DNA of 64,000 nucleotides from Escherichia coli (GTDB lineage: Bacteria > Pseudomonadota > Gammaproteobacteria > Enterobacterales > Enterobacteriaceae). Under the pieces are notes generated by a model, which was not told where the DNA came from, did not search any database, and saw only the letters and a program-made list of their open reading frames with translations. The position numbers were made by a program, and so were the translations under genes. How positions within the stretch are numbered: the stretch's first letter is position 1; every line of letters begins with the position of its first letter. Where the stretch lies: the NCBI RefSeq assembly GCF_030384885.1, contig NZ_CP128613.1, one strand, 5' to 3'. Of this stretch, positions 29,004-29,316 are shown piece by piece.

Positions 29004-29316
29004 GTGATAACTATGGATGATAATATAAAAAAACCAAGAACAGAAAAAACATTAAAGCAAAAGGTTGCTTTTGCTCAGCTTGAACTTAATCGTCTTAAGT
29101 CTCTGGAAAAATCAGAACGAAAAAAGTTGAAACAAGGCTAAAGATTATACTTGGTGCGGAAGTGGCTAAGGCTATGCAGTGTGATATCGAACAGGTGGAT
29201 AAAGAACTCGTTATGGGGATTTTGCTTTCAGCATCTGACCTGAATGATATTGAAAAAATAACGTATATAAAAGCAGGCAGAAAGTTTCTTGCTCAAATGG
29301 ATGGAAGACAAAAATA
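29004..29316 (+). pseudogene. Small basic coiled-coil ORF (possible mobilisation accessory gene) interrupted by a frameshift
   Basis: 46-codon ORF stops at 29138-29140; a protein-like frame continues one register over to 29316; an A6 tract precedes the stop. Confidence 0.3.

Follow-up and report, generated by a model that had tools for sequence, protein, structure and literature searches.

A one-base deletion probably inactivates the traD gene of an EARL-family genomic island in Escherichia coli

EARL islands and the island in the window

The EARL islands are integrative mobilisable elements whose backbone consists of an integrase and an excisionase, a MOBQ relaxase together with TraD, and two pilus genes (PMC6035254, PMC10763509). 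The survey of this family already records disrupted or truncated copies of the conserved genes in some islands (PMC6035254). In one study, deletion of the mobA homologue of the island ROD21 left the transfer frequency unchanged (PMC3976249), a result that makes the weight of the mobilisation module for island spread uncertain and that would fit the tolerance of traD null alleles described below. For TraD itself, the precedent is the Agrobacterium Ti plasmid, where the protein, acting with TraA and TraC, autorepresses the divergent promoters at oriT, according to the work of Cho and Winans (2007) as it is cited in PMC4700958.

The DNA analysed in this study (the window) is a stretch of 64,000 nucleotides from Escherichia coli contig NZ_CP128613.1, and it contains an island of approximately 22.4 kb with a G+C content of 37.7%, compared with about 47-48% in the flanks. 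The island is bounded by two plus-strand copies of the 14-nt direct repeat CCCTCTCTCCGCCA: the left copy (11870-11883) corresponds to the 3' end of tRNA-Ser(CGA) and marks the left edge, and the right copy (34279-34292) marks the right edge. The empty site in E. coli 2013C-4282 aligns to both repeat copies, and the flanks of that genome are otherwise almost identical to those of the window. Separately, approximately 7.1 kb of 2013C-4282 (21142-28296 of locus L004), comprising a portion of a very large gene for an Ig-like adhesin together with its neighbours, is missing from the window at about 5279-5283; the 1347-aa ORF on the minus strand at 1208-5251 may be a truncated remnant of this Ig-like adhesin.

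Within the island, an AlpA-family excisionase (recombination directionality factor; 13214-13432, plus strand; Phage_AlpA, E 9.5e-19) adjoins a DUF6387 gene, and a P4-like tyrosine integrase with the Pfam domains Arm-DNA-bind_3, Phage_int_M and Phage_integrase is encoded on the minus strand at 32897-34114. The mobilisation module includes an intact MobQ (MobA/MobL) relaxase of 493 aa (26888-28369, minus strand; PF03389, E 2.6e-54), whose homologues are annotated as MobQ family relaxases and whose gene is divergent from traD. On the plus strand lie a PilS-type type IV pilin (29713-30270; Pfam PilS, E 2.2e-29) and a PilV-like pilus tip adhesin with a Shufflon_N domain (30323-31759; PF04917, E 2.6e-14; homologues annotated PilV), so that the pilus-gene pair carries the PilS/Bundlin and Shufflon_N domains expected of an EARL island. 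The defence-type genes comprise a NACHT protein (14832-16682), the Thoeris genes ThsA (21608-23077) and ThsB (23094-23705), and a CAP12/Pycsar-type TIR effector on the minus strand (31967-32797). Additionally, the minus strand of the island holds an H-NS paralogue (16894-17298) and a weak RepL-like match (18127-18684).

This gene content closely parallels that of the described EARL islands ROD21 of Salmonella Enteritidis and ICEKp258.2 of Klebsiella pneumoniae, with which the window island shares a MobQ relaxase and TraD beside a type IV pilin and PilV-like pair, a P4-like integrase with an AlpA excisionase, insertion at a tRNA gene with direct repeats, low G+C content, an H-NS paralogue, and TIR genes. 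Judged by this shared gene set and by 92-96% DNA identity to E. coli islands that carry this module, the window island is a member of the EARL (ROD21-like) family. It differs in its insertion site, which is tRNA-Ser (serU) whereas ROD21 is located at tRNA-Asn; in its cargo of Thoeris, a NACHT protein, and a CAP12-type TIR effector; and in its traD gene, which is broken by a one-base deletion in a run of seven adenines (A7).

The 643-bp, AT-rich region between mobQ and traD (28370-29012) is a candidate oriT and divergent promoter region. It contains two small GC hairpins, each with a GTAA loop (28670-28681 and 28700-28717), as well as the motif ATGTGTTGCAC, which occurs at about 28760 and again at about 28891, and its mean column identity across island variants is 97%, versus about 94-96% for the flanking genes and overall. 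The hairpins and the repeated motif are plausible candidates for oriT or operator elements. In some relatives, a 116-121-aa ORF lies directly upstream of traD and overlaps its start (5624-5989 in L001; also L035, L036, and L038); this ORF, which is missing in the window, could encode a TraC-like second accessory protein. On the other side of traD, approximately 250 nt past its stop and before pilS, lies a strong hairpin of terminator type with a T run behind it (AAGGCAAAGA-GAAA-TCTTTGCCTT-TTTT; 29569-29600), suggesting that the transcript of traD is separate from that of the pilin genes; this hairpin was absent from the output of a consensus scan.

A single traD gene in two reading frames

The 5' fragment of traD on the plus strand is preceded by a Shine-Dalgarno sequence, GAGGTG (29001-29006), read directly from the sequence and also kept in the aligned islands of E. 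coli CI5 and APEC20/16. This element lies six bases upstream of the ATG at 29013, which is likely the true traD start. Frame 0 then extends over 29013-29141 and consists of 42 codons (MDDNIKKPRTEKTLKQKVAFAQLELNRLKSLEKSERKKLKQG) followed by a UAA stop at 29139-29141; the alternative GTG start at 29004, chosen by the ORF finder, gives 45 codons and the stop. The split of the frame was correctly recognised in the original prediction, and these values replace the 46 codons and the stop at 29138-29140 that it had given.

The break itself is located in a run of six adenines (A6) at 29120-29125, followed by a G at 29126, which is the site of a one-base deletion in comparison with the A7 and AAAGAAA alleles of relatives. 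The A6 tract was correctly identified as the site in the original prediction, which placed the frameshift just after the tract; the break lies inside the run, and the frame-0 stop follows 13 nt after it. The -1 frame is open from 29099, becomes protein-like from 29120, where it reads KKVETRLKIILGAEVAKAMQCDIEQVDKELVMGILLSASDLNDIEKITYIKAGRKFLAQMDGRQK, and ends with a stop at 29315-29317, in agreement with the earlier description of a protein-like frame continuing one register over for about 58 codons past the first stop. The resulting 3' fragment (29120-29317, plus strand) reads KKVETRLKIILGAEVAKAM...DGRQK and UAA. Within this fragment, some gene callers annotate a 47-aa ORF on the plus strand from the ATG at 29174 (29174-29317), which lacks the invariant core ETRLKIILGAEVAKA discussed below. 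A GTG start at 29162 would lengthen it to 51 aa, and a lookup of the exact 51-aa GTG-start product found none on record. A second A7 run in traD, at 29027-29033 (codons 5-7, I-K-K), is in frame and intact in the window; CI5-type alleles have AAAAAGA at that position.

Joined across the break, the two frames encode a mostly helical protein of 101 aa (11.6 kDa) that matches the Pfam TraD family (PF06412) with 41.8 bits (E 9.6e-11), above the gathering cut-off of 22.3 bits. The match spans the junction, with residues 35-94 aligned to positions 2-61 of the 62-position profile. The 42-aa piece alone has no Pfam match and the 51-aa downstream piece alone reaches 17.8 bits, under the cut-off, so that PF06412 membership holds for the repaired joined sequence only and the fragments as encoded fall short of it. 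Since the match crosses the junction in the joined protein, the two frames are one gene and not a chance arrangement.

The homologues examined each have one open frame of 101-104 aa, with A7 or AAAGAAA in the place of the window's A6. In the alignment, CI5 reads CGAAAAAAAGTT (A7), APEC20/16 and the plasmid CP088875 read CGAAAGAAAGTT, and the window reads CGAAAAAAGTT; the CI5, APEC20/16, and CP088875 copies are all annotated as a 306-nt traD. Related loci were found on 781 E. coli chromosomes in addition to one plasmid copy, and among those listed the annotation is an intact 'conjugal transfer protein TraD'. With a 91-nt probe centred on the run, none of the 5,426 complete E. coli genomes matched the A6 allele exactly, and among the probe matches listed, all span one extra base relative to it. 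At the protein level, 352 database homologues were obtained; among the 120 listed, nearly all are 98-112 aa long and the shorter ones are mostly labelled partial. Intact alleles predominate by far, individual 101-aa variants being present on 100-600 contigs each, and most alleles of the family carry the interrupted AAAGAAA rather than A7. A scan of one genome per species with the pattern AAATCAGAACGAAAN{2,5}GTTGAAAC gave zero matches.

Because the homologues with A7 or AAAGAAA keep an open frame, the alignments indicate that ancestral traD was one open frame and that the window copy lost one A. The comparison with homologous loci proposed along with the original prediction thus returned an uninterrupted ORF, for example in CI5, APEC20/16, and CP088875, and the homologues, at 101-104 aa, do not uniformly encode a short 46-aa product.

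The position of the break suggests that its consequences would be severe. Residues 40-54 (ETRLKIILGAEVAKA) are invariant in an alignment of 15 homologues with 56-85% identity, in which much of the N-terminal part of TraD is also conserved; this invariant core begins directly after the break, and neither encoded fragment retains it. An AlphaFold model of the joined protein, of moderate confidence (pLDDT 72, pTM 0.37), has a single long helix spanning residues 14-55, and the break cuts this predicted helix. The deletion would therefore be damaging, with the invariant residues following the break and the helix interrupted. A sequence search of solved structures found no relative of TraD, and a Foldseek search of the model against the PDB found no related fold (best E 5.2). 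The Pfam membership, the divergent layout beside the MobQ relaxase gene and the candidate oriT, and the Ti-plasmid precedent combine to suggest that the traD product is probably a relaxosome accessory or autoregulatory protein.

Inheritance and recurrence of the A6 allele

Public assemblies from NCBI, ENA, and Logan, built from independent runs, contain the exact 42-aa product in 30 index blocks (24 of the contigs were read; at least 22 contigs in another count), among them the NCBI entry CAD6032770.1, 'Uncharacterised protein [Escherichia coli]'. In all of the fetched loci encoding this product the run is A6, and their identity to the window is 99.6-100% over 3-20 kb. An unbroken A7 version of the window's allele is present on 8-14 contigs, and the A7 and A6 islands differ by that base and by 0-3 SNPs over 6-20 kb, which points to a recent A7-to-A6 change. 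Within the window-type island, A6 is the commoner state among the assemblies on record (approximately 22-30 versus 8-14 contigs); the A6 allele is therefore not being rapidly purged from this island type.

Site 30390 carries C in all of the A7 loci covering it and either C or T in the A6 loci, and no revertants were found in the 30390-T subclade; the SNP pattern fits a single A7-to-A6 event within the window-type island. One A6 locus, L019 (ENA ERZ13616183; aligned to window positions 19013-35046), contains a divergent patch at 24796-25100. The spacer between tRNA-Ser and zinT in L019 is also unlike the one in the window and shows partial resemblance to the spacer of an A7 carrier (L027). These features hint at recombination, at movement of the island once the frameshift was in place, or at a further independent deletion.

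The same deletion was detected in a second island lineage, of the CI5 type, where three assemblies (L031-L033) carry A6 in loci that are 99.2-99.9% identical to CI5 and 94.7-96.7% identical to the window. Since CI5-type markers are present on either side of the run in these loci, the A7 run has slipped independently at least two times, which makes this site a hotspot. Neither the A8 product (in both allele backgrounds) nor the A5 product (in the window-type background) is on record. Loss of traD by other routes was also seen in relatives: the nonsense allele R36* (CGA to TGA) occurs in two allele backgrounds (L034/L037 and L036/L038), and Q16* and K6* are further null alleles. R36 is the codon just before the A run, making its TGA a second recurrent traD kill within a few bases. 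Apparent disruptions in L040 and L041 correspond to scaffolding N runs and were left out of the count of null alleles. In total, the island family has at least six independent traD null alleles, two of them by the same A-run deletion; the gene is intact in most copies yet repeatedly lost.

Combined, these results argue for a real, inherited A7-to-A6 deletion in the traD gene of an EARL island, leaving a pseudogene or at best a severe hypomorph, and this interpretation is assigned a probability of approximately 0.85. The suggestion that the split frame is a pseudogenised mobilisation accessory gene is accordingly upheld in the original prediction's own terms: a TraD-family gene stands beside a MobQ relaxase, its homologues are intact, and otherwise identical islands carry A7. 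In the proposed sequence of events, replication slippage would most likely have removed one A, and translation would then cover only 42 codons and stop midway through the predicted long helix, directly ahead of ETRLKIILGAEVAKA, such that normal decoding would yield no functional TraD. An occasional -1 slip on CGA AAA AAG would give the exact wild-type protein at a basal level only, from about 0.3% to at most a few per cent. Elsewhere the island is unchanged, including the relaxase, pilin genes, integrase, excisionase, and defence genes.

The main use of this result lies in annotation: the ORFs at 29013-29141 and 29174-29317 are best combined into one entry, marked as a traD pseudogene with a frameshift in an EARL-family island, and should be recorded neither as two new small proteins nor as a site of recoding. 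The repeated loss of a relaxosome accessory gene also bears on whether these defence-carrying islands remain mobilisable.

Slippage at the A run and the competing explanations

The frame-0 codons CGA AAA AAG at 29118-29126 place an A_AAA_AAG heptamer in phase, conforming to the X_XXY_YYZ pattern of slippery sites, and a -1 slip at this heptamer gives ...ERKK-VETR..., identical to the A7 protein. The sequence AAAAAAG is common, with 34 copies in the window compared with 22.7 expected, and the slippery heptamer in traD was created by the deletion by chance. A downstream stimulatory fold is absent: the 74 nt examined have a folding energy of -10.2 kcal/mol, versus a shuffle mean of -12.3 kcal/mol (z = +0.86). 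Upstream, TCTCTGGAAAAATCAGAACG contains no Shine-Dalgarno-like element (no GGAGG-like sequence). Published measurements on the three best V_VVA_AAG heptamers, including A_AAA_AAG, give approximately 0.3% -1 frameshifting in E. coli when stimulators are absent, compared with approximately 0.05% as background, and the best 3' context lifts this to at most about 3.7% (PMC4066793). Without a downstream structure or an upstream Shine-Dalgarno-like element, the efficiency expected in the window is therefore only about 0.3%, with a ceiling near 3.7%. By analogy with these measurements, an incidental low-level -1 leak that would rebuild authentic TraD, at about 0.3-4% at most, is plausible. This leak is what survives of the earlier proposal of a translational frameshifting site; its programmed form was rejected, as both conservation and stimulators are missing.

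A stronger version of the leak holds that translational rescue, by ribosome slippage or by RNA polymerase adding an A, turns A6 into a down-tuned traD, and that this would explain both the persistence and the recurrence of the allele. This explanation is considered unlikely, although several observations fit it: the heptamer is in the right phase, is among the best -1 motifs of E. coli (PMC4066793), and yields a slipped product equal to the A7 protein; A6 is present in two lineages and is the commoner state of the window-type island; and the products of A8 and A5 are not on record. There is also a precedent for rescue beside AAA-AAA sites in E. coli, where one account, concerning an over-expression vector, gives 25-60% rescue of one-base deletions (PMC1851650). 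Set against these points are the missing downstream structure and upstream element, which hold the expected level near 0.3% and under about 3.7%, and the occurrence of nonsense traD alleles, which are beyond any slip and indicate that plain gene loss is tolerated; moreover, very few events underlie the absence of A8. Similarly improbable is the related proposal that the A7-to-A6 change is a recurrently selected turn-down of traD that keeps a trickle of about 0.3-4% authentic TraD. Were that so, the outcome would be lower relaxosome activity or a de-repressed divergent mobQ promoter with the gene retained, and a rescue of this kind would be a natural mobile-element case of ribosome slippage compensating for a homopolymer deletion.

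Reversible phase variation, in which the A run would act as a contingency switch for traD and for mobilisation of the island, is less probable still. The run does exist in A6 and A7 states on otherwise identical islands, as would be expected of an ON/OFF tract, and the same change took place again in a second lineage. Seven bases make a short run for a contingency locus, however, and most members of the family carry AAAGAAA, which is unable to slip. Only the forward A7-to-A6 change was found, in the two lineages, with no revertants, A8, or A5, and the SNPs of the window-type island fit a single event.

A sequencing or assembly error at the homopolymer, with a genome that is really A7, has very little probability and was ruled out as a candidate. 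Homopolymers are classic sites of indel errors and the A6 allele is missing from the 5,426 complete genomes; against this, the truncated product and the A6 DNA recur on at least 22 contigs that were produced by independent runs and pipelines, the chromosomal flanks of the window are nearly free of indels relative to the complete genome 2013C-4282 (one gap and one mismatch in approximately 14 kb), and elsewhere in the island, A7 and A8 runs lying in intact ORFs have left the frames unbroken. The weakest explanation, a selected programmed -1 frameshift of the dnaX or IS type that makes 42-aa and 101-aa products by design, has the perfect in-phase A_AAA_AAG in its favour and can be set aside, given that the two-frame layout is not conserved in homologues and was seen only in two very recent clones, that stimulators are missing, and that the ancestor is a simple uninterrupted ORF.

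Relative to the TraD of the Ti plasmid, the joined protein belongs to the same Pfam family (PF06412) and its gene shows the same divergence from the relaxase gene across the oriT region; the window differs in being without a TraC partner and in having a short MobQ relaxase where the Ti plasmid has the large TraA. Relative to -1 frameshifting of the dnaX and IS911 type, the window has the same in-phase A_AAA_AAG with the rest of the protein in the -1 frame, but its site is without the upstream Shine-Dalgarno-like element, the downstream stem-loop, and the conservation of those systems, and came about when an ordinary ORF recently lost a base. Homopolymer pseudogenes and cases of translational indel correction (PMC5009743; for pDEST17, PMC1851650) provide a further comparison: they share with the window a slippery Lys-Lys site where an A run has lost one base and where a -1 slip would recover the original protein, the level of rescue expected in the window being low.
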